Of a DNA stretch of 64,000 nt, positions 52,059 through 64,000 are shown one piece after another. Made by a program: the position numbers and the translations under genes. Origin of the DNA: an uncultured Chloroflexia bacterium (GTDB lineage Bacteria > Chloroflexota > Limnocylindria > Limnocylindrales > CSP1-4); contig CAVRGM010000003.1 in assembly GCA_963720715.1 (NCBI GenBank), positions 45,427-109,426 of the forward strand, read 5' to 3'. The notes below the pieces were generated by a model. That model was not told the origin of the DNA. It searched no databases and was given only the letters and a program-made list of their open reading frames with translations. How positions within the stretch are numbered: position 1 is the first letter of the stretch; each line of letters begins with the position of its first letter.

Positions 52059-52784
52059 ATGAGTCGCTACGCGGACTGGCTCCGTCTCCGGGTGATCCCG
52101 GCCATCATCGTCGCGCTCGGGGTGACGTTCCTGGCGGCGGGGATGCTGTCGTTCACCAACCCGGCGGCCGCCGATCCCATCGCGGTCGCGACCCCGACAC
52201 CGACGCCCGGCCAGGCCTCCCCGCCCAGCCCGACCGCCAGTCCGCTGATCACCCTGCCGCCGATCGATCCGGGCGATCCGACGCCGACCCCATCGGTCGA
52301 TCCCGCGGATCGCCTCGCCACCCGCGTCCGGGTCGCTGCCCTCAAGATCGATCTGCCGGTCATCGCCCCGAAGGGCGGCTATCCGCCGTGCAACGTGGCG
52401 CTCTACTACGGCGATGATCGGCTCGGCCAGCCGGGCCAGGGCAAGGCCACCTACCTCTATTCCCATGCCCGGACCGGGATGTTCCTGCCGATCCTCGAGG
52501 CATCCAAGGTCAACAACGGAAAGAAGATGATCGGGATGGTCGCCGAGGTCTGGACCAGCGACGACCAGCGATTCCTGTATGTCATCACCAAGGTCCTTCG
52601 TCACGTGCCGTACGACCAGGTCTTCAACAAGCCCTTCGCGGCGAAGGGTGAGCAGCTCTGGTTGCAGACGTCGGAAGGGGTCGGGACGCAACCGAAGCTG
52701 CAGATCGTCGCCGAGCCGCTCTCGACCGAAGCGGCCGACCACGCCGAGGCGAACCCCGTGCCGAAACCGATCGACTGCGGCTAG
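52059..52784 (+). CDS. hypothetical secreted/membrane-anchored protein (Pro/Thr-rich linker + globular domain)
   Basis: An N-terminal TM 'VIPAIIVALGVTFLAAGMLSF', a Pro/Thr/Ala-rich spacer, and a C-terminal ~150-aa domain with a sortase-like spacing of 'H…' but no catalytic Cys. No confident family assignment. Confidence 0.45.
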   Translation: MSRYADWLRLRVIPAIIVALGVTFLAAGMLSFTNPAAADPIAVATPTPTPGQASPPSPTASPLITLPPIDPGDPTPTPSVDPADRLATRVRVAALKIDLPVIAPKGGYPPCNVALYYGDDRLGQPGQGKATYLYSHARTGMFLPILEASKVNNGKKMIGMVAEVWTSDDQRFLYVITKVLRHVPYDQVFNKPFAAKGEQLWLQTSEGVGTQPKLQIVAEPLSTEAADHAEANPVPKPIDCG

Positions 52785-54280
52785 GTCGGCAGCTGGGCCA
52801 CCAGCGACTGGGCCGCGTCACCCGCGGCATCGAGGAGCCCGGTCGGGAACAGACCGAGCAGGATGGTCAGCGCCGTCGCAGCCGCCAGCCCGCCCCACAT
52901 CAGGCCGCCATGACGAGGCGCCGGCGCCTCGCTCGTGCTGTCGCGCATGAACATGTAGACGACGACGCGCAGGTAGTAGAACGCGGCCACGGCGGCGTTG
53001 AGCACCGTGATGACGGCCAGGACCGTCAACGGCCCACCGGCCTGCACGGCGGCCAGGATGATGTTCGCCTTGGCGAAGAACCCGGCCGTCGGTGGGATCC
53101 CGATCAACGACAGGAGGAAGAGGGTCATCAGGACACCAAGCAGCGGCTCGCGCCGACCCAACCCGGCGAACGTCCCGAGACTCGAAGTGACCCCGCTCCG
53201 CTTCTGGAGCGCGGCGATGACCGCGAAGGCACCGAGGTTCATGAACGCGTAGGCCACCATGTAGAACAGAAGCGCCGAGATCCCGGCACCGCCCGGGTCC
53301 TGCGCCCAGGCGGCCAGGCCGACGAGCATGTACCCGGTGTGCGCGATGGAGCTGTAGCCCAGCATCCGCTTGACGTTGTCCTGGGTCAGGGCGACCAGGT
53401 TGCCCAGGGTCATCGTGATCGTGGCGAGGACGATGACGACCGGCAGCCACCAGTCGGCCAGCGGCCCGAGTGCTTCGACGAACAGGCGCAGGATCAACGC
53501 GAAGGCGCCGACCTTCGGTCCGACCGACAGGTAGCCGGTGATGGGTGTCGGCGAGCCCTGGTAGGCGTCCGGAGTCCAGTAGTGGAACGGGACGGCCGCG
53601 ATCTTGAACGCGACCCCGGTCGTCAGGAAGGCCAGACCCATCGCCAATCCGGGTGACAGCGTGCTGGAGCCGGCGACGATCGCCGCCAGCTGGTCGGCGA
53701 TGACGTCGAGGCGCATCGATCCGGTCACTCCCCAGACGAACGCCAGCCCGAACAGGAAGATCGCCGAGCTGAACGACCCGAGCAGGAAATACTTGATCGC
53801 GCCCTCGGTCGAGTAACCGTCGGCCTTGTGGAAGCCGGCCAGGAGATAGCCGGGCAGGACCATGAGCTCGAGGCCGATGAACAGCAGCAGCAGATCGGCC
53901 GAGGCGGAGATGAGCATCGCGCCGGTCATCGCGAAGACGAGGATGGCCGCGAACTCCGCCACCGGCAGCCCCCGCGGGACCAGATAGTCCGGTCCGAACA
54001 GGATGGTCATGGCGATGACCGCCACGAACAGGACATCCAGGAAGGTCGTCAACGCGTCCACCTGGTACGAGCCGCCGAACGCGGTCCCAGGCGTATCCCC
54101 GGCTACCACGGATGACCCGATGGCGACGGTCAACGCCGCCGTGATCGCCAGGCCGAGCAGCGCGGTGAAGACGGCGACCGACGGTCGTCCGGGTCGGATC
54201 AGGTCGACGAGCAGGATCGCGGCTGCGGTCAGGATCCCGACGACGAGCGGGCTGATCGTGACGAAGTCATCGCCACTCAA
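52781..54280 (-). CDS. nuoN: NADH-quinone oxidoreductase subunit N
   Basis: 499 aa, polytopic, NuoN/ND2 family (antiporter-like fold). It is last in the nuoJKLMN series. Confidence 0.9.
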   Translation of the reverse strand: MSGDDFVTISPLVVGILTAAAILLVDLIRPGRPSVAVFTALLGLAITAALTVAIGSSVVAGDTPGTAFGGSYQVDALTTFLDVLFVAVIAMTILFGPDYLVPRGLPVAEFAAILVFAMTGAMLISASADLLLLFIGLELMVLPGYLLAGFHKADGYSTEGAIKYFLLGSFSSAIFLFGLAFVWGVTGSMRLDVIADQLAAIVAGSSTLSPGLAMGLAFLTTGVAFKIAAVPFHYWTPDAYQGSPTPITGYLSVGPKVGAFALILRLFVEALGPLADWWLPVVIVLATITMTLGNLVALTQDNVKRMLGYSSIAHTGYMLVGLAAWAQDPGGAGISALLFYMVAYAFMNLGAFAVIAALQKRSGVTSSLGTFAGLGRREPLLGVLMTLFLLSLIGIPPTAGFFAKANIILAAVQAGGPLTVLAVITVLNAAVAAFYYLRVVVYMFMRDSTSEAPAPRHGGLMWGGLAAATALTILLGLFPTGLLDAAGDAAQSLVAQLPT

Positions 54281-55929
54281 TGTGCGACCCCGCCTTCAGG
54301 TTCAAGGCGCGCTGGACGTGGCCGGGTCAGCGCCCAGCCGATGCGGGCGACGATGAGCACGACGACCAGCGCCAGCAGCCCGCCGGCGACCTCGATCGGG
54401 ATCGCGATGGCGGTCGCCGGCTCGACGGCCGCGAGGGTGGATGTCACGGTCCCGGAGAAGAGGTCGAGCAGCAACCCGGGTTGAAGGCCGAATACGACGA
54501 CCAGCGTGCCCAGCGGGACCACGGTCAGGATCTCCACCGGGGTCATGTCGGTCAGGTGGTCGCCGAGCCCGGTCAGGAACTCGGATAGTTCGCCGAGTAC
54601 GACCCGACCGTACATGTACAGGAGGTAGCCGGCCGCCAGGATCATCACGAATGTCGCGACCGCGGCAGCGTACGGGTAGACCTCGAACGTTCCGACCAGG
54701 ACGAGGAACTCGCCCACGAACCCGGACAGGCCGGGCAGGCCCGCCGATGCGAACACGAAGAACCCGAAGACCGCGGCGTAGACCGGTGTCCGGCTCGACA
54801 GCCCACCCATCTTCGCGATGGTCCGATCGTGCGTCCGTTCGTAGATGACGCCGACCAGCAGGAACAGGGCGCCGGTGATCAGGCCGTGGTTGATCATCTG
54901 GAGGACGGCACCCTGCAGGCCCTGCTCGGTGAACACGAAGATGCCGAGCGTCACGAAGCCCATGTGACTGACCGATGAGTAGGCCACAAGCCGCTTCAGG
55001 TCGGGCTGTACGAGGGCCACGATCGCCCCGTAGATGATGGCGATGAGCGACAGCACGATGATCAGCGGCGCGAACGTTTCGGCCGCCGATGGATAGAGCG
55101 GCAGGGCGAACCGGATGAAGCCGTAGGCGCCCAACTTGAGCATGATCGCGGCCAGCATCACCGAGCCGGCGGTCGGCGCTTCCGTGTGCGCGTCGGGCAG
55201 CCAGGTATGGAACGGGAACATCGGGACCTTGATCGCAAAGGCCAGGAAGAAGGCCAGGAAGGCCAGGATCTGGAGACCGTCCGCGAAGCCGCCGGTCCCG
55301 GCGTAGTGCCGGAGCGCCTCGAAGTCGAACGCGCCCTGCCAGCCGGTCAGCGGGTGGCCGAGCTGGTAGGTATAGGCCGTGGCCAGGATCGCGACGAGCA
55401 TGAGCAGCGAACCGACGAGGGTGTACAGGACGAACTTGATCGTGGCGTAGATCCGGTTCGAGCCGCCCCAGATGCCGATGATCAGATACATCGGGACGAG
55501 GACGATCTCCCAGAAGATGTAGAAGAGGAACGTGTCCAGGGCGAGGAACACGCCGATCAGCCCGACCTCGAGGATGAGGAACGAGATCATGTATTCCTTG
55601 ATCCGAGTCTGGATCGGCTTGAAGCTGGCCAGGATCGCGATCCAGCTGAGCAGCGTGGTCAGGACGACCAATCCGACCGACAACCCGTCCGCGCCGATCT
55701 TGTACTGGATGCCGAAGGCCGGGATCCAGTCAACGCTTTCGACGAACTGGAAGCCCGGCCGACCGGGCAGGTAGCCGATCAGCAGGAACAACGAAACGAC
55801 GAACGTCAGCAGGGCGAAGGTCAACGCGATGCCCCGGGCTGCACTCGGCGGCGCGACGGCGACCACCAGGGCGCCGATGAGTGGCAGGAACGTGATGACG
55901 GTCAGGATCGGGATGTCGCCGATGTTCAT
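54277..55929 (-). CDS. nuoM: NADH-quinone oxidoreductase subunit M
   Basis: The start is at 'MNIGDIPILTVITFLPLIGALVV', with an ND4-type antiporter-like core. The ORF track's upstream Arg-rich extension is rejected. Confidence 0.9.
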   Translation of the reverse strand: MNIGDIPILTVITFLPLIGALVVAVAPPSAARGIALTFALLTFVVSLFLLIGYLPGRPGFQFVESVDWIPAFGIQYKIGADGLSVGLVVLTTLLSWIAILASFKPIQTRIKEYMISFLILEVGLIGVFLALDTFLFYIFWEIVLVPMYLIIGIWGGSNRIYATIKFVLYTLVGSLLMLVAILATAYTYQLGHPLTGWQGAFDFEALRHYAGTGGFADGLQILAFLAFFLAFAIKVPMFPFHTWLPDAHTEAPTAGSVMLAAIMLKLGAYGFIRFALPLYPSAAETFAPLIIVLSLIAIIYGAIVALVQPDLKRLVAYSSVSHMGFVTLGIFVFTEQGLQGAVLQMINHGLITGALFLLVGVIYERTHDRTIAKMGGLSSRTPVYAAVFGFFVFASAGLPGLSGFVGEFLVLVGTFEVYPYAAAVATFVMILAAGYLLYMYGRVVLGELSEFLTGLGDHLTDMTPVEILTVVPLGTLVVVFGLQPGLLLDLFSGTVTSTLAAVEPATAIAIPIEVAGGLLALVVVLIVARIGWALTRPRPARLEPEGGVAH

Positions 55930-57896
55930 CAGCGCGCCAAGAGCAGGTACGACCCGGCCATCACGATCAGCCCGATGGCGATGCCGAGAGCATAGTTCTG
56001 GACCCGACCGGTCTGGACCTGACCCAGGCCGCGACCGGCGTCGACCGTCGCGCCGCCGATGGCGTTGACCGTCCCGTCGACGACTTCGCGATCGAACCAC
56101 CAGAGAGCCGCGGCGAGCCGGCCGCCGATGACCATGAACAGGAAGTGATACAGGTCATCGAACCACCACTTGTTGAGGGACGCCCGATACAGGAAAGGTG
56201 CCCGGGCGGTCAACTCCCGGACGCGCTCAGGACGTGACGGCATGCGGAGTGGTCCCACGCGGACCCCGAACAGGCGCCACCCGATGACCATCCCGACGAC
56301 CGCGATGGTCACGCTGGCCAGGATCAGGACCCCGTCCAGGCCGAACAGCTCGTAGTTGGGCTCCGCTTCCGTATGCAGGATGTGCAAGCCCTCGGCGAAC
56401 ACCGGTTCGAGCCAGCCCGTGATCCGACTCGCACCCAGGGGCAGCCCCAGGTAGGCGCCCAGGAAGATGGTCGGGATGGCCAGCAGGATGAGCGGGATGG
56501 TCATGACCCGCGGCGACTCATGGATCTTGTCCCAGATCGCCTTGGGCCCGCGGAAGGTGCCCCAGAAGGTGAGGCCCATGAGCCGGAACATGTAGAACGC
56601 GGTCATGCCGGCGACCAGGAAGCCGATCGCCCAGACCCACAGGAATCCGAACTTGAACGCCTCGCCGAGGATCTCGTCCTTCGAGAAGAACGCTGCCAGT
56701 GGCGGGATCCCGGACAGGGCCAGCGAGCCGATGAACATCGTCCAGTACGTGATCGGGATCTTGGACGACAGGCCACCCATCTTGCGCATGTCCTGTTCCT
56801 CGTGGACGGCGTGGATGACCGAGCCCGAGTCGAGGAACAGCAGACCCTTGAAGAAACCATGGGTCATCAGGTGGAAGATCGCCGCCGTCCAGGCGCCCAC
56901 CCCGAACGCCGCGAACATGTAGCCGAGCTGGCTGAGGGTCGAATAGGCGAGGACCCGCTTGATGTCGGTCTGGGTCATCGCGATCGACGCCGCCAGGATG
57001 GCCGTGAAGATGCCGATCGCCGCGACGACCACGAGGACCGACGGCGCATAGGCGAAGATCGGGTTGGTCCTGGCCAGCAGGTAGACACCGGCATTGACCA
57101 TGGTCGCGGCATGGATGAGGGCGGAGACCGGGGTCGGGCCCTCCATCGCGTCCGGCAGCCAGACGTGGAGCGGGAACTGGGCGCTCTTGCCCATCGCCCC
57201 GGCGAAGATGAGCAGCGCGATGATCACGATCGTCGCGCTGTCGAGCTCGCCGATGCGGGCGATGACCTCACGGATGTCGAGCGTCCCGAGGCTGACGAAG
57301 ATGAGCATGATGCCCAGGGCGAAGCCGACGTCACCGACCCGGTTGACGATGAACGCCTTCTTGGCCGCCAGCGCCGCCGACCGCTTGCGATACCAGAACC
57401 CGATGAGCAGGTAGCTGCACAGCCCGACCAGTTCCCAGGCCACGAAGACGACCAGGAAGCTGCTGGCCAGGATGAGCAGGAGCATCGAGAACATGAACAG
57501 GTTGAGGTAGGCAAAGAACCGCCAGTAGCCCGGGTCGTGGCTCATGTAGCCGATCGAGTAGACGTGTACGAGCAGGCCGATCGTGGTCACCACGATGAGC
57601 AGGCAGGCGGTCAACGAATCGACGACGAAGCCGACTTCGACGTGGAAGCTGCCGGCCGGGATCCAGGTGAACGCCGTGACCGCATAGCCATGCGAGTCTT
57701 CCGAGCCGGGCAGGAGCGGGGCGCTGCCGCCGAGGACATCCACGACCAGAGCCATCGCGATGACCCACACCGCCAGGATGGCCAGGACCGGGATCCAGTG
57801 GGCCTGCTTGCCCAGCCGTCGCCCGACCAGCGCCGTCAGCCCGAACCCGGCGATGGGCAGCACGACCAGGGCCGGGATCAGGGCCTCGAGCGTCAC
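55929..57896 (-). CDS. nuoL: NADH-quinone oxidoreductase subunit L
   Basis: 655 aa, 'MTLEALIPALVVLPIAGFGL…', ND5-type with a long C-terminal extension (HL helix). Confidence 0.9.
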   Translation of the reverse strand: MTLEALIPALVVLPIAGFGLTALVGRRLGKQAHWIPVLAILAVWVIAMALVVDVLGGSAPLLPGSEDSHGYAVTAFTWIPAGSFHVEVGFVVDSLTACLLIVVTTIGLLVHVYSIGYMSHDPGYWRFFAYLNLFMFSMLLLILASSFLVVFVAWELVGLCSYLLIGFWYRKRSAALAAKKAFIVNRVGDVGFALGIMLIFVSLGTLDIREVIARIGELDSATIVIIALLIFAGAMGKSAQFPLHVWLPDAMEGPTPVSALIHAATMVNAGVYLLARTNPIFAYAPSVLVVVAAIGIFTAILAASIAMTQTDIKRVLAYSTLSQLGYMFAAFGVGAWTAAIFHLMTHGFFKGLLFLDSGSVIHAVHEEQDMRKMGGLSSKIPITYWTMFIGSLALSGIPPLAAFFSKDEILGEAFKFGFLWVWAIGFLVAGMTAFYMFRLMGLTFWGTFRGPKAIWDKIHESPRVMTIPLILLAIPTIFLGAYLGLPLGASRITGWLEPVFAEGLHILHTEAEPNYELFGLDGVLILASVTIAVVGMVIGWRLFGVRVGPLRMPSRPERVRELTARAPFLYRASLNKWWFDDLYHFLFMVIGGRLAAALWWFDREVVDGTVNAIGGATVDAGRGLGQVQTGRVQNYALGIAIGLIVMAGSYLLLAR

Positions 57897-58210
57897 TGCC
57901 GCATCGCGTCGTACTCGTCGACCAGCGGCGTCTTCTTGTTCCGGTAGATGGCGATCACGATGGCCAGCCCGGCCGTCGCTTCGGCGGCCGCGACGGCGAT
58001 GACCATGAGCGCAACGACCGAACCCTGGGCGGCCATCGCGGCGTCCGCTCCGAATGCCGCGAACGCGAGGATCGCCAGGTTGACCCCGTTGAGCATCAGT
58101 TCGATCGACATCAGCATGCTGATCGCATTACGGCGGGCGAGGAACCCGAAGGAGCCGATCGCGAAGAGCAGACCGGCCAGGACCAGGTAGGCGTCGAGCG
58201 ATCCACTCAT
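57893..58210 (-). CDS. nuoK: NADH-quinone oxidoreductase subunit K
   Basis: 105 aa, 'LVLAGLLFAIGSFGFLARRNAISMLMSIELMLNGVNLA', canonical NuoK/ND4L. Confidence 0.9.
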   Translation of the reverse strand: MSGSLDAYLVLAGLLFAIGSFGFLARRNAISMLMSIELMLNGVNLAILAFAAFGADAAMAAQGSVVALMVIAVAAAEATAGLAIVIAIYRNKKTPLVDEYDAMRQ

Positions 58211-58800
58211 GACGGCCCGCCCGGTTCGCGCTTGGCCAGGTACACGCCACCGATGACGGCGGCCAGCAGGAGCACGCTGATGATCTCGAACGGGAGGACG
58301 TAGTCGGCGAAGAGCACCCGCGACAGCGCAGCGGCGGTGACCTGGAACCGCTCCGTCGCCTCGCCCCAGTCGGTCGCGGCGATGGCCAGGGCGATGACGA
58401 CGGCGATGACGATCGACGCGATGGCCGCCGGCACCGCCTGGGTCTGGAATACGAGGCGGCTCGGTGCGTCCTTGGTCTGGGTCAGCATGATCGCGAACAG
58501 GATCAGGACGCTGATCGCCCCGATGTAAACGATCACCTGAGCGGCAGCGACGAGGGTCGCACCCAGGATGACGTAGATCCCGGCCAACGCCCCGAAGCAG
58601 ACGATCATCGCCAGGCCGCAGCGGATGATGTCGCGCATCGTCACGACGAGCAGGGCCGATCCGATCATCAGCGCGGCGAAGATCCAGAACAGGGCATCAG
58701 TCCAGTCCTGGCCGAGGAAGACGAGCATGATCGCGGCCACCGCCGTGACCAGGCCGAGGACGGCGAGGCCGAGGATGATCGGGACCAGACGATGCATCAC
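58207..58800 (-). CDS. nuoJ: NADH-quinone oxidoreductase subunit J
   Basis: 197 aa with the ND6-like five-TM pattern. It is immediately upstream of nuoK. Confidence 0.85.
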   Translation of the reverse strand: MMHRLVPIILGLAVLGLVTAVAAIMLVFLGQDWTDALFWIFAALMIGSALLVVTMRDIIRCGLAMIVCFGALAGIYVILGATLVAAAQVIVYIGAISVLILFAIMLTQTKDAPSRLVFQTQAVPAAIASIVIAVVIALAIAATDWGEATERFQVTAAALSRVLFADYVLPFEIISVLLLAAVIGGVYLAKREPGGPS

Positions 58801-58809
58801 GACCGTCGC

Positions 58810-61419
58810 CTACTCGTGGTGGCTTGGTGCGATGGCCGCCCCGTCATGACCGTTGCCGTGGTCATGGCCATGACCGTGACCGTTGCCGTTGGCGGTCACC
58901 CCGGTCACGGTCGGTGGCAGCATCGGCAGCATCCGGGCGGTATCGATGAGCCGGCCCTCGGCCGCCGCACGGCTGGCCCAGTCACGCTCGCGATGGATGT
59001 AGGTGACCTCGGTCTCGCGGTCGACCGCCGCGATGGCCATCAGGTCGATCATCGGATCGGCGCGGCTGGTGTGCGACAGTTCGATATCGGCACCATCGCG
59101 CAGGGCGTCGTACGGGCAGGCATCGACGCAGATCCCGCACAGGATGCAGCGACTCTCGTCGACCTCGTACTTCTCGAGGATGCGCGGTTTGGGCATCAAC
59201 GCGCCGGTCGGACACGTCTCCGCACAGCGGCCGCACGAGACGCACGGCGTGTCGTTCAGGCTCATGTCCAGGGGCGTCGTCACGAGCGTGTCGAAGCCGA
59301 TCCGCATGAAGTCGTAACAGGCCGCACCGACGACCTCCGAGCAGACCTGGGCGCAGCGGCCGCAGTCGATGCAGCGGGACGGCTCGCGCAGGATGAAGGC
59401 GTGCGAATCGTCGCGGATATAGTCGTGATTGACACCCGTGAACCGGTTCTCGGTGACGCTCCGGAAGCCGGCGCCGGCATGATGCTGGGGCTCCAGGGTC
59501 GGCAGGGTCGTGCCGTACTCGATACCCAGCCGACGCAGGTCGCAGAATCCGATGGCCTCGCAGGTGCACTGCAGGCAACGGGTCGATTCGGCCACCGCGT
59601 CCTCGCGGGTGTACGGCAGCTCGTATTCGATGTACGACCGATTGCGTTCCTCGGCCTCGAGCGCGGTCAGGCGGTACCGGGGCGTCTTGGTCTCGGCCGT
59701 GAACGGCACGATGGACAGGAATTCGGGTTGCGGCTCGGCCAGCGTCTGGCGGGTCCGGATGGCGGCCAGATCCATCCCGCGCAGGTACGCGTCGACGGCA
59801 TACGCCGAGCGCCGGCCCTCCGCGATGGCTTCGACGACGGTGGCCGCGCCGATCCGAACGTCACCGCTTCCGAACACGCCCGGCCGGTCGGTGGCGAACG
59901 TGACCGCGTCGGCCTTGAGCCGGCGTTGCTTGGTCGCCTCGATACCGCCCGAGCCGGGCCCGATCCAGGTCAGGTCCGGGCCCTGGCCGATGGCAAGCAG
60001 GACCCGGTCGCAGGGGATCGTGAACTCCGTGCCGGGCGCCGGTTCCGGACGGCGCCGACCTGAGGCATCGGGCGCACCCAGGGCCATCCTGATGAATTCG
60101 ACTCCGGTCACGTTGCCGCTCGGGTCGGTGATGACCCGCACCGGACCGGCCTGGAAGATCGCGGTGACGCCCTCTTCGATCGCCTCATGGACCTCGTTCG
60201 AGGCGGGCATGTCCTTCATGTCGCGGCGATAGACGAGGGTGACCTCCGCGGCGCCCTGGCGGACCGAGGTCCGCGAGCAGTCCATCGAGGTGAAGCCACC
60301 GCCGATGACCACGACCCGCTTGCCGACATGACCCGGGTAGGGCAGCCCGAGCGTCGCCGTCCGGAGATACTCGAGGCCGTCCAGGACCTCCGCTGCGTCC
60401 TCGCCCGGGATCCCGAGCTTGTTCGTGTCGTAGCAACCGATCGCGACGACCACCGCGTCGAAGCCCTGGAAGGTCAGGTCATCGAGCGTGAAGTCCGTGC
60501 CGAGGCCAGCGTTGCAGACCAGCTTGCCGCCCAGCCGGGTGATCGATTCGTATTCCGCTTCCAGGACTTCCACCTTGGGCAGGCGGTACTGGGGGATCCC
60601 ATAGCGCAGCATCCCGCCGGGCGCGGGGTCACGTTCGTAGACGGTCACGTCGTGGCCGGCGAGGAGCAGGTAGAACGCTGCGGCCATGCCGGCCGGGCCG
60701 GACCCGATGACAGCCGCCCGACGTCCGGTCGGAGCCTGGCGCTCGAACGGCAGCGGCGGATCGACGCCGTCGTCGAGCATCGCCTTCAGGACCTGGTCGC
60801 CGGCGTAGCGGTGGCTGTCCCGGATGGCGATAGCCTCGTCCACCTCGTCACGGCGGCAATGCTCCTCGCACGGCGCTGGACAGACGCGCCCGAGGACGCT
60901 CGGGAAAGGGATCGTGCGTTTGAAGATGCGGGCGCTCTCGCGCCAGTCCGCTTCCGCGTTGGCCTTCAGGAAGCCGGGGATGTCGATGTGGCTGGGGCAC
61001 TTGTTCTGGCAGGGCGGCAGGCAGTACGCGTTGTGATCGGAGAAGATCAGCTCGAGGTTGGTCCGGCGCAGCCGTCGCAGCTCGTCGGTCTGGGTCTGGA
61101 CCTTCATCTCGGGCTCGCACGTTCGTGAGCAGGAGATCGGCGGGTGCTCCTCGCCTTCGACCTCGACGACGCACATCCGGCAGGCCCCGAAGCCCGGCAG
61201 TTTGGGCTCGTAGCACAACGTCGGGATCTCGATCCCGTTGTCGCGGCAGACCTCCAGGATGGTCTGCCCCTCGAAGCCTTCGACGACCCGCCCATCGACC
61301 TCGATCCGGATCCGCGTCGTCGACTGGGGACGTTGCGGCGACTGCGTGTCAAGGAGGCGCTCGGCAAGCGATGACTCGATCTCGGGGCGGCTGTCTGGGC
61401 GCGTGATCAGGTCCGCCAT
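58810..61419 (-). CDS. multidomain Fe-S flavoprotein: NuoG-N-terminal-like [2Fe-2S]+[4Fe-4S] + GltD-like FAD/NAD(P)H oxidoreductase + 2x[4Fe-4S] ferredoxin + NuoI C-terminal half + His/Gly-rich tail
   Basis: Domains in order. (1) 'CRDNGIEIPTLCYEPKLPGFGACRMC' [2Fe-2S]. (2) 'HNAYCLPPCQNKCP'. (3) 'GRVCPAPCEEHC' then 'AAVIGSGPAGMAAAFYLLLAGHDVTVYERDPAPGGMLRYGIPQYRLPK' and 'GKRVVVIGGGFTSMDC' (GltD/SudA-type). (4) 'CIDCGRCAQVC…CVSCGRCAETCP'. (5) 'KYEVDESRCILCGICVDACPYDAL…MIDLMAI' matching the second half of NuoI. (6) A 'GNGHGHGHDHGNGHDG' tail. The start is set at 'MADLITRP' (61419), just after the nuoF stop. Confidence 0.7.
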   Translation of the reverse strand: MADLITRPDSRPEIESSLAERLLDTQSPQRPQSTTRIRIEVDGRVVEGFEGQTILEVCRDNGIEIPTLCYEPKLPGFGACRMCVVEVEGEEHPPISCSRTCEPEMKVQTQTDELRRLRRTNLELIFSDHNAYCLPPCQNKCPSHIDIPGFLKANAEADWRESARIFKRTIPFPSVLGRVCPAPCEEHCRRDEVDEAIAIRDSHRYAGDQVLKAMLDDGVDPPLPFERQAPTGRRAAVIGSGPAGMAAAFYLLLAGHDVTVYERDPAPGGMLRYGIPQYRLPKVEVLEAEYESITRLGGKLVCNAGLGTDFTLDDLTFQGFDAVVVAIGCYDTNKLGIPGEDAAEVLDGLEYLRTATLGLPYPGHVGKRVVVIGGGFTSMDCSRTSVRQGAAEVTLVYRRDMKDMPASNEVHEAIEEGVTAIFQAGPVRVITDPSGNVTGVEFIRMALGAPDASGRRRPEPAPGTEFTIPCDRVLLAIGQGPDLTWIGPGSGGIEATKQRRLKADAVTFATDRPGVFGSGDVRIGAATVVEAIAEGRRSAYAVDAYLRGMDLAAIRTRQTLAEPQPEFLSIVPFTAETKTPRYRLTALEAEERNRSYIEYELPYTREDAVAESTRCLQCTCEAIGFCDLRRLGIEYGTTLPTLEPQHHAGAGFRSVTENRFTGVNHDYIRDDSHAFILREPSRCIDCGRCAQVCSEVVGAACYDFMRIGFDTLVTTPLDMSLNDTPCVSCGRCAETCPTGALMPKPRILEKYEVDESRCILCGICVDACPYDALRDGADIELSHTSRADPMIDLMAIAAVDRETEVTYIHRERDWASRAAAEGRLIDTARMLPMLPPTVTGVTANGNGHGHGHDHGNGHDGAAIAPSHHE

Positions 61420-61426
61420 GGTCGCC

Positions 61427-62752
61427 TCATGAGATCGCACCAGCGGCCACCGCGATGGGATGGCAGACGCCGGCCGGGCAGGTGCTGCGCAGGATGTGGT
61501 CGTCGAGCTCGGAACTGAAGTATCGCATCCCGCTGGTCAGCGGAAGCGTCGTCAGACGCTCGTGATCGCAGAGGGCTGAGGCCACGATGTCCTCGGCCAG
61601 GTCGGTCAAAAGTTGCGGATCGGTCGGTCTGGGCCGGCCGTCGACGACGCGATCGGCGATCTCGGACAGTCGCCGCGTCCCGATCCGGCAGGGGATCGTC
61701 TTGCCGCAGGCCTCACCCGCGCAGAACCGGGTCAGCAACCTGGCCAGGTCGACGACGCACGTCCGGTCGTCGGCGACGACGATGGAGCCCGAACCGATAT
61801 GGGCGCCGACGGCTCGCAGGGGCTCGAACGCATACGCGGTGTCGAGCAGGTCAGGCGGCAGGATGCCGCCTGACGGTCCGCCCACGAGTACGGCCTTGAG
61901 CGACCGGCCCGTTGCCGGTTCGCCGCCAAGCTTGACGATGTCACCGAGGGGCGTTCCGAGCGGGACCTCGGCGATGCCCTCGTCGCCGGCGGTCCGGACC
62001 TGGACGAGGATCGTCCCGGGAGCGTCGGGCGCGCCGATCGCGGCGAAGGCCTCGGGACCGTTGCGGACGATCCAGGGCACGGCGGCCACGGTCTGGACGT
62101 TGTGGACGACGGTCGGCATGCCGTCGAGCCCGCGCTCGGCCGGATGCGGCGGACGCTGTTCGGGCTGGCCGCGCTTGCCTTCGAGCGCCTTCAGCAGGAC
62201 CGTCTCTTCGCCGAGCATGTAGGCGCCCTGGACCGGCCGGACCGTCACGTTGATGTCGTGGCCGGAGCCAAAGGCGTCGTAACCGACGTAGCCGGCCTCC
62301 TGGGCCGCTCCGATGGCCGCGGTCAGGGCCCTGATCGATGCGGTCGCGTCGGTCCGAACGGCCACGAACACATCCGCGGCGCCGATCGCGAACGCGGTGA
62401 TGGCCGCACCCTCGATGACCGCGAACGGATCTCGCTCGAGCAGATACCGGTCCGTGGCGCTGGCCGGGTCGGCGCCGTAGCCGTTGACCACGACGAACCG
62501 GCGCGGCGCATCGGTCGATGCAGCGGTCCGCCACTTGTCCGCGGCCGGGAACCCGCCTCCGCCACGCCCGCGCAGTCCGGCCTGACCGATCATCGCGGTC
62601 GTCGCGGTCGCCCCGAAGTTGCGGATGACCCGACGCATCGCATCGAAGGCCCCGGCTTTCGTCGCGGCATCGAGATCGGTCGGATCGGCCGCCCCGACCC
62701 GCTCGAGGAGGACGGTCGGCCAGGCGGCAGGTGTCGTCAGCAGTTCGACCAC
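61427..62752 (-). CDS. nuoF: NADH-quinone oxidoreductase subunit F (51-kDa, FMN/NADH-binding)
   Basis: 441 aa with 'GLRGRGGGGFP' FMN site, NADH-binding Gly-rich region, and the C-terminal 'CAGEACGKTIPCRIG' [4Fe-4S] N3 motif. Confidence 0.85.
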   Translation of the reverse strand: MVELLTTPAAWPTVLLERVGAADPTDLDAATKAGAFDAMRRVIRNFGATATTAMIGQAGLRGRGGGGFPAADKWRTAASTDAPRRFVVVNGYGADPASATDRYLLERDPFAVIEGAAITAFAIGAADVFVAVRTDATASIRALTAAIGAAQEAGYVGYDAFGSGHDINVTVRPVQGAYMLGEETVLLKALEGKRGQPEQRPPHPAERGLDGMPTVVHNVQTVAAVPWIVRNGPEAFAAIGAPDAPGTILVQVRTAGDEGIAEVPLGTPLGDIVKLGGEPATGRSLKAVLVGGPSGGILPPDLLDTAYAFEPLRAVGAHIGSGSIVVADDRTCVVDLARLLTRFCAGEACGKTIPCRIGTRRLSEIADRVVDGRPRPTDPQLLTDLAEDIVASALCDHERLTTLPLTSGMRYFSSELDDHILRSTCPAGVCHPIAVAAGAIS

Positions 62753-62757
62753 CGTCC

Positions 62758-63444
62758 TTACGCCCGCGCCGTCGCTTGGCCGTCGTCCGGTCCCGACGCC
62801 CCGCTGAGCGCGGCACCAAGTGCTGCGACGTAGTCCGCTTCGGCCGGTCGATGGGCCGCCATCGCGGCCGCCTGGGCGGTCGCGTCGACGGGCTCGAACC
62901 GAAGGTGGCTGTAGTACGTCGCGGTCCCGTAGATCATCGCGTACCAGGCACCGGTCTTCTGACTGATCCGCTTGAGCGTCGCGACGGGGAGGTAGCCATA
63001 GGCGGTCTGGGTCGCCTCCAGGATCTCGAGCATCCGGTCCGGATCGTGATCGTATTCCTCCAGGATGGCGTCGAGGGATGTCAGATCGACCGGCTCGAAC
63101 GGCCGATAGGCCGGATCAGGAACGGCCCGGCCGGAGCGCCGGAGGGCCAATTCCTCGCGCCGCTCGCCATAGGTCTCGGGCGCGCCCCAATGGACGTGGA
63201 AGCGGCCGCGCGTGTCGATCCCGCCCATGTCGATGCATTCGATCGGGCAGGCCTGGGCGCACTGGAAGCAGGTCTCGCACTTGAGCGTGCCCCATTCGTC
63301 GTACAGGAGCTGCAGTCGACCCCGGAACTTGGGCGGTGGGTCGCGCCGGTCCTCCGGGTACATGACCGTGACCTTGGGCTCGAAGAACCGGCGGAGGGTC
63401 AGGGCCATGCCCTTGGCGATCCCAAGGCCGGGTACGAAGCTCAT
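62758..63444 (-). CDS. fusion of NuoI N-terminal half (one CxxCxxCxxxCP motif) with NuoE-like N-terminal domain lacking Fe-S cysteines
   Basis: The start ATG overlaps the nuoH stop (ATGA). 'MSFVPGLGIAKGMALTLRRFFEPKVTVMYPEDRRDPPPKFRGRLQL…CETCFQCAQACP' = NuoI residues ~1-75. 'MLEILEATQTAYGYLPVATLKRISQKTGAWYAMIYGTATYYSHLRFEP' then follows as the NuoE N-domain, with no second ferredoxin motif and no NuoE [2Fe-2S] cysteines. The ORF track's N-terminal 140 codons upstream overlap nuoH and are rejected. Confidence 0.65.
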   Translation of the reverse strand: MSFVPGLGIAKGMALTLRRFFEPKVTVMYPEDRRDPPPKFRGRLQLLYDEWGTLKCETCFQCAQACPIECIDMGGIDTRGRFHVHWGAPETYGERREELALRRSGRAVPDPAYRPFEPVDLTSLDAILEEYDHDPDRMLEILEATQTAYGYLPVATLKRISQKTGAWYAMIYGTATYYSHLRFEPVDATAQAAAMAAHRPAEADYVAALGAALSGASGPDDGQATARA

Positions 63445-64000
63445 GAGGAACGGACCGACGTGAAGACGACGATGGCGGCAGCGGTCACGAACAGATTGAG
63501 CAGGGAGGCCGGCAGCATCCACTTCCAGGCGAAGTCCATCAGTTGGTCGATCCGGACTCGGGGCAGCGTCCCACGCATCCAGACGAAGGTGAACACGAAG
63601 ACGTACGTCTTGCCCATGAACCAGAGCAGGCCGGAAACCCATTCGATCCCCACGTAGGCCATCGCACCGATGACCGCGGCGATGAACAGGTTGGCCAGGA
63701 CGAAGCCGCCGATGAGCGCCTGCCAGCCCTTGATCCTGGCACTGGCCATCCAGATCGGGGCGGCGAAGGCGATGGTCAGGAGGACCGGCACGACCGAAAC
63801 GAGGATGAGCAGCTCGATGCCCAGGCCCCCGGGATCGAGTGACAGCGTGACGTCCCACGGCCATGGGATGGGGGCATTCCAGCCGCCGAAGAAGAGGGTC
63901 ACGGTCAGGGCGGAGATGATGAACACGTTGACGTACTCGGCGAAGAAGAAGAAGCCGAAGCGCATCCCCGAATACTCGGTTGCGAACCCGGCGACGATCT
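63441..64000 (-). CDS. nuoH: NADH-quinone oxidoreductase subunit H (C-terminal part; N-terminus beyond window)
   Basis: 'FFFAEYVNVFIISALTVTLFFGGWNAPIPW…WMRGTLPRVRIDQLMDFAWKWMLP' = conserved NuoH/ND1 C-terminus. The ORF is open to the window edge. Confidence 0.85.
   Translation of the reverse strand, partial: IVAGFATEYSGMRFGFFFFAEYVNVFIISALTVTLFFGGWNAPIPWPWDVTLSLDPGGLGIELLILVSVVPVLLTIAFAAPIWMASARIKGWQALIGGFVLANLFIAAVIGAMAYVGIEWVSGLLWFMGKTYVFVFTFVWMRGTLPRVRIDQLMDFAWKWMLPASLLNLFVTAAAIVVFTSVRSS

Follow-up and report, generated by a model that had tools for sequence, protein, structure and literature searches.

Gene order and the two halves of nuoI

What does a complex I operon encode when its canonical nuoI is missing and a flavo-iron-sulfur module stands in the middle of its genes? 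This question is raised by a 64,000-nucleotide stretch of DNA (hereafter the window) from an uncultured soil Chloroflexia bacterium of the order Limnocylindrales (GenBank assembly GCA_963720715.1, contig CAVRGM010000003.1, positions 45,427 to 109,426). Direct reading of its open reading frames (ORFs), frames and stop codons gives, on the minus strand, the order nuoH, P1, a gene for a NuoF-like protein, P3, nuoJ, nuoK, nuoL, nuoM and nuoN, where P1 and P3 denote two fusion genes and their products. This agrees with an earlier, sequence-only reading of the same DNA, which had described nuoH, a fusion gene, nuoF, a second fusion gene and nuoJKLMN, with no canonical nuoI. No canonical nuoI, nuoE or nuoG was found in the operon, either in the window or in the operons of the relatives examined, and tblastn found each of P1, the NuoF-like gene and P3 only once within the window. 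The window ends inside nuoH, and the nuo genes upstream of it are known from orthologous loci only. As domain and profile matches show, the 5' half of nuoI is fused to an anchoring domain like that of NfnC and NuoE, and its 3' half stands in place of the vestigial formate-dehydrogenase-like domain of NfnA. With moderate confidence, we propose that the product of the locus is a proton-pumping, membrane-bound complex I with the 11-subunit gene order nuoA-B-C-D-H-I-J-K-L-M-N, with an operon of the NfnABC/Stn type lying inside nuoI, and that the enzyme would be a dual-donor NAD(P)H:quinone oxidoreductase without bifurcation.

The two halves of NuoI were recognized with family models. Residues 9-78 of P1 match positions 1-62 of the 121 positions of TIGR01971 (NuoI; 50-53 bits), with a further match to NF004536 (E 1e-14), so that the start of P1 is indeed the N-terminal half of NuoI that had been read there. 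Residues 753-797 of P3 match positions 71-115 (to ~116) of the same model (42-48 bits). Since P1 and P3 cover adjoining, non-overlapping positions, the halves are complementary. When the P3 tail alone was compared with NCBIfam, the top six matches were all NuoI (E 7e-11), the segment past the cysteine motif included. Joining P1 residues 1-88 and P3 residues 751-830 in silico resulted in a single continuous NuoI match (positions 1-116 of 121, 98.2 bits). Moreover, a profile built from 27 re-joined pairs of three lineages matched the NuoI/TYKY/NDUFS8 chains of complex I in the Protein Data Bank (PDB) in one stretch (E 1e-29 to 1e-23), with the junction lying in the loop that separates the two cysteine motifs. 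All eight NuoI cysteines are present, four in P1 (C56, C59, C62 and C66, 100% conserved in 75 orthologues) and four in P3 (C765, C768, C771 and C775); a NuoI on a single polypeptide (above 113 bits, with two CxxCxxCxxxCP motifs) was found in neither protein. A reading of the third P3 cysteine motif as a remnant of the NfnA cluster A5 was considered and rejected, as A5 is bound by a CxxCxxxC motif in a different domain and the top family matches of the tail are NuoI.

Past its NuoI half, P1 continues without a stop into the N-terminal domain of NuoE. Residues 125-188 match PF01257 (NuoE) over positions 2-65 of 145 only, and the C-terminal thioredoxin-like domain of this family, with its four-cysteine [2Fe-2S] site, was not found in P1. 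The cysteines of the protein are confined to residues 56, 59, 62, 66 and 70; as none follows residue 70, the NuoE [2Fe-2S] site is absent, in agreement with the sequence-only reading. Searches with profile hidden Markov models, which that reading had put forward as a check, confirmed both the domain boundaries and the two NuoI halves.

NuoI had also been described as bisected by a ~3.4-kb in-frame insertion. The two complementary halves stand, but the distance between them is ~4.0 kb (63180-59191) and is filled by three separate cistrons with stop codons of their own. The TGA stop of nuoH and the ATG start of P1 overlap as ATGA, as first noted; the NuoF-like gene starts with GTG 5 nucleotides past the P1 stop, and nuoJ starts 9 nucleotides past the P3 stop, directly after the His/Gly-rich P3 tail that had been described. 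For P3, two alternative starts come into question, GTG 61440 (876 amino acids, aa) and ATG 61419 (869 aa); the latter is more likely the true one, because GAGG lies 7 nucleotides upstream and the conservation among orthologues begins there.

Relationship of the inserted genes to Nfn-type transhydrogenases

We then focused on the origin of the insert. The structures 9bov/9bp5, 8oh5/8oh9 and 9n5u represent NfnABC/Stn transhydrogenases of the Bfu family (PMC11829005, PMC10482914, PMC12018979), and PDB searches connected all three inserted genes with them. P3 (residues 44-775) aligns over 732 residues with residues 4-699 of 9bov_A (E 7e-162), and also matches 8oh5_C and 9n5u_A. The best matches of the NuoF-like protein are 9bov_B, HydB chains, 9n5u_B and 8oh5_B (E 1e-96 to 1e-91), with complex I NuoF at 3e-72 or weaker, and the NuoE-like part of P1 matches 9bov_C (E 2e-13) and 8oh5_A (~1e-13), with complex I NuoE chains at ~0.007. 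Because all three proteins match NfnABC/Stn complexes best, the insert is read as a trimmed Nfn-type operon. An origin from NuoEFG was considered and rejected, all three proteins being closer to Nfn/Hyd subunits of the Bfu family. The suspected likeness to soluble bifurcating or NAD(P)H-linked modules is thus borne out. The identity first given to the module, NuoE-like/NuoF/NuoG-N, holds for its NuoE-like, NuoF-like and NuoG-N plus GltD parts; what had to be revised is its source, a Bfu-family Nfn operon from which the bifurcation parts have been lost in this lineage.

The relationship extends to the gene order (C-like, B-like, A-like), and the subunits are homologous. As in the A-type subunit of Nfn and Stn, P3 combines a [2Fe-2S] site, a GltD/NfnL-like FAD-NADPH domain placed inside a NuoG/HydA-like Fe-S domain, and a 2x[4Fe-4S] part; it holds the whole BfuA-type set, namely A1 [2Fe-2S], A2-A4 [4Fe-4S] and the NfnL-like FAD/NADPH domain with A6 and A7. 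A NuoF-like subunit with FMN and B1 and a NuoE-like N-terminal domain are likewise shared with NfnABC. Each subunit differs from its counterpart by a loss or a replacement. Compared with NfnC, the thioredoxin-like domain carrying the C1 [2Fe-2S] cluster is gone in P1. The NuoF-like protein aligns with residues 105-526 of the 584 residues of NfnB only, and is without the N-terminal thioredoxin-like (B5) and C-terminal 2x[4Fe-4S] (B3/B4) domains. In P3, the formate-dehydrogenase-like (pterin-like) domain of NfnA, with A5, is replaced by the C-terminal half of NuoI. The complete bifurcating BfuBC core (B1, FMN, C1, B3/B4 and B5) was therefore not found in the window, but was found in relatives of the Thermoleophilia type (see below).

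In NfnABC from Csac, the electron path was described as FAD-A7-A6-A3-A2-A1-B1-FMN, with A2-A4-A5 forming a dead-end branch that is considered an evolutionary remnant, and the N-terminal domain of NfnC anchors this subunit between NfnA and NfnB (PMC11829005). The minimal bifurcating site, B1-FMN-C1, includes C1 (PMC11829005), and non-bifurcating Bfu homologues without B2-B5 have been reported (PMC9304861).

Cofactor sites of the NuoF-like protein and P3

Two distinct flavin/nicotinamide sites had been predicted between the NuoI halves, and the domain matches bear them out. The first belongs to the NuoF-like protein, which contains Complex1_51K and NADH_4Fe-4S domains (Pfam) and retains the motifs GRGGGGFP and GEET. 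The earlier description of a complete nuoF is right as to these domains, but the protein is NfnB/HydB-like and its N3 motif is non-canonical. In the window clade the B1/N3 motif reads CGK(T/S)IPC; D396 and H397 hardly ever vary there, and the conservation of C344 reaches 97%. These three residues are candidate replacement ligands for B1/N3 in the window protein. Two relatives (L081 and L086) have the canonical CxxCxxC motif, and in proteins of the L088 type the third cysteine is lost (CGRCIPG) and an extra cysteine is found near the fourth (LCGLC). The motif drifts among lineages, with different cysteines lost and the loss apparently compensated. In addition, the residues aligned with the region of the NfnB B2 zinc site (H419, C425 and C430) are found in ~70% of orthologues.

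The second site belongs to P3, in which Fer2_4 (42-118), Fer4_20 (140-218), Pyr_redox_2 (242-542) and Fer4_Nqo3 (683-748) domains are followed by the NuoI match. The ~870-aa gene had been divided into four parts: Fer2_4, the GltD-type module, the ferredoxin domain and the NuoI half were all recovered, but the His-ligated [4Fe-4S] family of the NuoG-type part, PF10588, gave a partial match only (positions 1-17 of 40, E 4e-4). The GltD/NfnL type is supported by PF14691 (E 1.5e-17), PF07992 (E 1.5e-29) and TIGR01316/01318 (E 1e-90). Its module carries H136, C140, C144, C148, C187, C191, C195 and H210, with GSGPAG for FAD and GGGFTSMD...YRR for NADPH; the GxGxxG, GGGxxxxD and NADPH-type YRR motifs are invariant in 87 P3-family proteins. 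His210 (60811-60813, minus strand) aligns with the A7 ligand Lys170 of StnC, a residue called strictly conserved and mutation-sensitive (PMC10482914), and the histidine that replaces it in P3 is invariant in 87/87 proteins. After the GltD insert, C622, C625, C627 and C633 form a candidate site for a cluster of the A3/N5 type, and the ferredoxin domain contributes C690/693/696/700 and C733/736/739/743. The NuoI C-half starts 22 residues past the last cysteine of the second ferredoxin motif. The His/Gly-rich tail is moderately conserved, in proteins of the Limnocylindrales type only, and is absent in distant relatives; it could bind metal.

Conservation and distribution of the operon

A genome scan with P1 returned >349 loci, and the best 80 (73-87% identical) were examined. 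Nearly all of them come from metagenome-assembled genomes (MAGs) labelled Chloroflexota or Candidatus Limnocylindria/Limnocylindrales. The synteny search proposed in the sequence-only reading thus gave a clear result: the order nuoH-P1-NuoF-P3-nuoJKLMN is kept in 80/80 loci, as far as contigs extend, with another gene instead of nuoH in L070. Of the genes in the operon, P3 is as a rule conserved best (80-93% identity), and P1 has 2933 homologues. None of the cluster cysteines varies in the 61-75 orthologues compared, and every Fe-S cysteine is invariant in the 87 P3-family proteins, which represent three lineages.

The upstream region was read in the orthologous locus L001, whose P1, NuoF-like protein and P3 are 85-93% identical to those of the window. 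A MidA/NDUFAF7-like methyltransferase gene is followed there by nuoA, B, C, D and H, and the same arrangement was found in 42/43 loci having the full upstream flank. The nuoABCD(EFG) genes, which the sequence-only reading had proposed to look for upstream of nuoH, are hence present in these relatives as far as nuoABCD is concerned, but no nuoEFG is there, nuoE and nuoG being absent from the operon. The NuoB of L001 keeps the N2 ligands (CC...C...C-P), and its NuoD keeps the quinone-site His and Tyr (HPSTHG, LEY) and has no NiFe cysteine pairs. Overall, the complex I core genes are accounted for by nuoH and nuoJ-N in the window and by nuoA, B, C and D in relatives.

Two genes of L001 deserve a separate mention. 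The methyltransferase upstream of nuoA (L001:4348-5406, plus strand; S-adenosylmethionine-dependent; PF02636, E 1e-42) is a conserved operon neighbour that is unexpected in Chloroflexota. The eukaryotic MidA/NDUFAF7 homologue methylates an arginine of NDUFS2 (NuoD) during complex I assembly. The longest NuoB ORF (L001:6145-6846, plus strand) encodes 233 aa, with ~95 residues before the Oxidored_q6 domain (residues 99-209); whether this extension is real depends on the true start codon, and, if real, it might contact the peripheral module.

A search of cluster representatives extended the family to full-length P1 relatives of down to ~29% identity. The contigs of these distant relatives carry nuoABCDH, a NuoI-N/NuoE fusion, a NuoF-like gene and a P3-like gene, and the P3-like proteins are 47-49% identical to the window P3, with the same C-terminal NuoI motif. 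Moreover, a metagenome scan with P0237 returned 80 loci, of which seven long ones were inspected (L096, L114, L118, L128, L141, L142 and L157). The operon is complete in 7/7, with flavoprotein genes larger than those of the window. In this Thermoleophilia type, the first gene encodes NuoI-N and a full NuoE that includes the [2Fe-2S] domain (C1), and the second encodes a complete BfuB of 620-650 aa, in which FMN and an N3-type cluster are accompanied by a thioredoxin-like domain and, at the C-terminus, a 2xFer4 domain. The P3-like proteins of this full-Bfu lineage carry the NCBI labels Thermoleophilia or Actinobacteria bacterium. Judging from these comparisons, the split NuoI is old and is distributed over two labelled phyla, as far as MAG labels tell, either with the full Bfu core or in the stripped version of the window.

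Some loci depart from the common arrangement. In the distant Chloroflexota relatives L086 and L088, the P3-like gene is the last of the operon, and nuoJKLMN do not lie next to it; in L086 it is followed by genes for a flavin reductase, a GYD protein and a 2-oxoacid:ferredoxin oxidoreductase. The locus L070:7046-11981 (plus strand; JANOTJ010000375.1, from the same MAG as L021) has a second P1-like gene, 76% identical and including the NuoI N-half, together with a NuoF-like gene; in place of nuoH, the gene before it encodes a GltD-like protein of 856 aa that shares 33% identity with P3 and contains Fer4_20, Pyr_redox_2 and two Fer4 motifs. The L070 pair may be a soluble paralogue or a misassembly. 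Several database "homologues" of P1 (P0152, P0196, P0219, P0230 and P0243) are products of a shifted reading frame, with a high content of Arg, Pro and Ala. Indel errors in assemblies of high GC content are their probable source, and automatic counting of domains would be misled by them.

Table 1. Positions of the nuo genes and of the domains and motifs of the inserted module in the window.
Feature	Position	Strand	Basis
nuoH, 3' part	63441..64000, off window end	-	58-88% identity to nuoH of related loci having nuoH; PF00146 in L001
P1, 228 aa, stop TAA; NuoI N-half and NuoE/NfnC-like N-terminal helical domain	62758..63444	-	Pfam/NCBIfam/PDB matches
NuoI N-half (P1 residues 1-88): amphipathic N-terminus and first CxxCxxCxxxCP motif	63181..63444	-	TIGR01971
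NuoE/NfnC-like N-terminal domain (P1 residues 117-200)	62845..63096	-	PF01257 and PDB matches
NuoF/NfnB-like flavoprotein, 441 aa; FMN/NADH site and B1(N3) [4Fe-4S]	61427..62752	-	Pfam/PDB
P3, NfnA/StnC-like Fe-S flavoprotein, 876 aa (longest ORF)	58810..61440	-	9bov_A; PRK12814, E 1e-162
P3 [2Fe-2S] domain, A1/N1b type (C76, C87, C90, C104)	61087..61317	-	PF13510, E 2e-20
P3 GltD/NfnL-like module: two [4Fe-4S] sites, FAD and NADPH sites	59761..61035	-	PF14691, PF07992
P3 CxxCxCx5C motif (C622, C625, C627, C633)	59542..59577	-	aligns with NfnA
P3 2x[4Fe-4S] ferredoxin domain, NuoG/HydA type	59197..59394	-	PF22117, PF12838
NuoI C-half (P3 residues 751-815): second CxxCxxCxxxCP motif and following F/I-E-L segment	58996..59190	-	TIGR01971
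P3 His/Gly-rich C-terminal tail (GNGHGHGHDHGNGHDG...HHE)	58813..58893	-	sequence
nuoJ	58207..58800	-	ORF and synteny
nuoK	57893..58210	-	ORF and synteny
nuoL	55929..57896	-	ORF and synteny
nuoM, start taken as ATG 55929, overlapping the nuoL stop	54277..55929	-	ORF and synteny
nuoN, last of the nuo genes	52781..54280	-	ORF and synteny

Proposed complex and alternative explanations

In the proposed complex, the P1 and P3 halves would reassemble into one NuoI fold with two [4Fe-4S] clusters, each shared by three plus one cysteines across the two polypeptides. Presumably, N6a would be bound by P1 C56/59/62 and P3 C775, and N6b by P3 C765/768/771 and P1 C66, by homology with the ligands of Nqo9. 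Through the NfnC-type N-terminal domain of P1, the NuoF-like subunit would be attached to the NuoI N-half. Electrons could then enter by two routes, from NADH through FMN, B1 and A1 to A2, and from NADPH through FAD, A7, A6 and A3 to A2, and would leave from A2 through A4 and N6a/N6b to N2 in NuoB and on to quinone. The NuoI C-half takes the very place of A5 and the pterin-like domain, and the dead-end branch of Nfn has probably become a working exit to quinone. In addition, the complex could exchange electrons between the NADH and NADPH pools. Because C1, B3, B4 and B5 are absent, the window lineage is read as non-bifurcating, and the enzyme is most simply understood as a dual-donor NAD(P)H:quinone oxidoreductase.

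Several points weigh against this proposal. The 98.2 bits of the re-joined NuoI lie below the curated TIGR01971 cutoff of 113, and an AlphaFold2 model of the re-joined halves, predicted from the single sequence without an alignment, was uninformative, with a predicted local distance difference test score (pLDDT) of 32. The B1/N3 motif of the window clade is without its second cysteine, and the ligation of this cluster is uncertain because of that loss. The specificity for NADH at FMN and for NADPH at FAD, as well as the direction of electron flow, is assigned by homology, the support being sequence comparison throughout, with the biochemistry deduced from it. Moreover, the absence of nuoI refers to the operon, and a canonical nuoI or a second nuo operon may lie elsewhere in the genomes.

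With the same subunits, the enzyme might instead be a three-terminal energy-coupling machine, in which electrons from NADH are split between an uphill path to NADP+ and a downhill path to quinone (a quinone-driven transhydrogenase), or in which the reverse occurs and proton-motive force and quinol drive NAD(P)H formation. We regard this as unlikely, even though the module descends from a true bifurcating transhydrogenase, relatives labelled Thermoleophilia retain a complete Bfu core (C1 and a full BfuB), three redox terminals converge on one cluster junction, and physiological NADPH is more reducing than NADH (PMC10482914). The window lineage lacks C1, B3, B4 and B5 altogether, all of which the Bfu literature deems necessary for bifurcation, and the FAD of StnC/NfnA was reported to be non-bifurcating (PMC10482914). 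The same ideas may be carried further, to a split-NuoI/Nfn class of complex I that has gone unrecognised and in which three or four redox pools meet at a single Fe-S junction. The Thermoleophilia form would then be a bifurcating or confurcating, proton-pumping NAD(P)H/ferredoxin:quinone oxidoreductase, and the Limnocylindria form would couple NADH, NADPH and quinone energetically, e.g., in quinone-driven NADPH formation; this extension, too, we hold to be unlikely.

It is quite improbable that the three inserted genes merely lie within the nuo operon and encode a soluble oxidoreductase of the Nfn kind, with NuoI-like pieces that are generic ferredoxin motifs and a complex I NuoI encoded elsewhere or not at all. 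P1 opens with a NuoI-specific N-terminal segment (model positions 1-62) that goes beyond a mere cysteine motif, the six best family matches of the P3 tail are all NuoI and include the segment past the motif, and each of the two proteins holds an orphan half-motif that requires a partner. The placement between nuoH and nuoJ, with the ATGA overlap, is also kept in 80/80 Limnocylindria loci and in loci of the Thermoleophilia type. Such a soluble enzyme would be in line with the scope of the nuoI search, which covered the nuo operon, with the second P1-NuoF pair found away from nuoH in one MAG (L070), and with the two distant lineages (L086 and L088) in which nuoJKLMN are not adjacent.

Finally, an assembly artefact, a frameshift or a decaying pseudogene is hardly credible and was rejected on the conservation data: some database homologues are visibly frame-shifted (e.g., P0152, P0196 and P0243), but the same order, frames and stops recur in 80 loci of independent MAGs and in many metagenome contigs, with the 2933 P1 homologues also excluding an artefact, the cluster ligands are invariant among lineages just 47-49% identical, and the start and stop codons of the window were checked directly in the sequence.

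If the proposed dual-donor complex is correct, a flavin site of the NADPH type in the complex I chain would alter the view of redox balance in Limnocylindria, which, according to the sample sources of the matching records, are uncultured soil and freshwater Chloroflexota. This would also be relevant to the Thermoleophilia-labelled bacteria of sediments, bioreactors and other aquatic or soil samples. In the reassembled NuoI, a 2x[4Fe-4S] ferredoxin fold would be divided between two polypeptides that reciprocally share the cluster ligands, a rare arrangement in nature. From an evolutionary point of view, the locus suggests the insertion of a whole operon into a gene. The related loci also form a gradation, with a full Bfu core at one end and a stripped input module like that of complex I at the other; this gradation makes the origin of the N-module from soluble Bfu-like enzymes, which has long been discussed, testable in living lineages.

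Comparison with known systems

Complex I is generally taken to accept NADH only, at one FMN, or, in its 11-subunit forms, to depend on ferredoxin or F420. With the canonical 14-subunit enzyme, the present locus shares the membrane-arm genes nuoH and nuoJ-N, nuoA and the Q-module genes nuoB, C and D in relatives (L001), with the N2 ligands, as well as an FMN/NADH flavoprotein with an N3-type cluster, an N1b-type [2Fe-2S] site and the eight NuoI cysteines. It differs in that NuoI consists of two polypeptides, the NuoG C-terminal domain and N1a are missing, an NADPH motif accompanies a second flavin (FAD) site, and the flavoprotein genes lie between the nuoI halves and not between nuoD and nuoH. 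A canonical NuoE-NuoF-NuoG input module was accordingly not found in the operon, where NuoE is represented by its N-domain only, NuoG is without its C-terminal domain and the flavoprotein is nearer to NfnB/HydB. Unlike in canonical complex I, the link to NuoI would probably run via the A4 branch rather than via N5.

The sequence-only reading had not recognised the arrangement as a described complex I variant, and a full-text literature search, by which subscription journals are mostly uncovered, likewise gave no description of a split NuoI or of a Nfn/GltD module inside a nuo operon. The nearest proposal is the predicted "Nuo-Bfu" of Schut et al. (2022), who also described soluble Nfn-Bfu; in Nuo-Bfu, 14 subunits with BfuABC replacing NuoEFG were assigned to Deferribacteres, Proteobacteria, Planctomycetes and Nitrospirae (PMC9304861). 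As in Nuo-Bfu, a Bfu-type NADH module is encoded in the middle of the nuo cluster, and the relatives of the Thermoleophilia type keep the full Bfu core; Nuo-Bfu, in contrast, has neither the GltD/NADPH domain nor a split NuoI, and is a prediction only (PMC9304861).

Once the insert is removed, the order A-B-C-D-H-I-J-K-L-M-N is that of the 11-subunit relatives of complex I (cyanobacterial NDH-1, Fpo and NUO11). In those enzymes, ferredoxin, F420H2 or unknown donors act at an intact NuoI, whereas here a flavoprotein module stands on a split one. In mbx-like operons, Degli Esposti (2015) described a gltD-related flavoprotein that takes the place of NuoI (PMC4758237). Common to these operons and the present locus is a membrane complex resembling complex I that is associated with an NAD(P)-binding flavoprotein of the GltD type, but there the flavoprotein is said to substitute for NuoI in a hydrogenase-related complex of the Mbx type, and here both NuoI halves are retained, together with a NuoF-like FMN subunit and a Q-module of the quinone type.

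Closest in the inserted genes themselves are the Nfn/Stn enzymes. They are soluble, tetrameric, ferredoxin-dependent and bifurcating, whereas the module of the window is covalently tied to complex I; and the Fe-S branch leading nowhere in soluble Nfn would serve here as a working exit to quinone.

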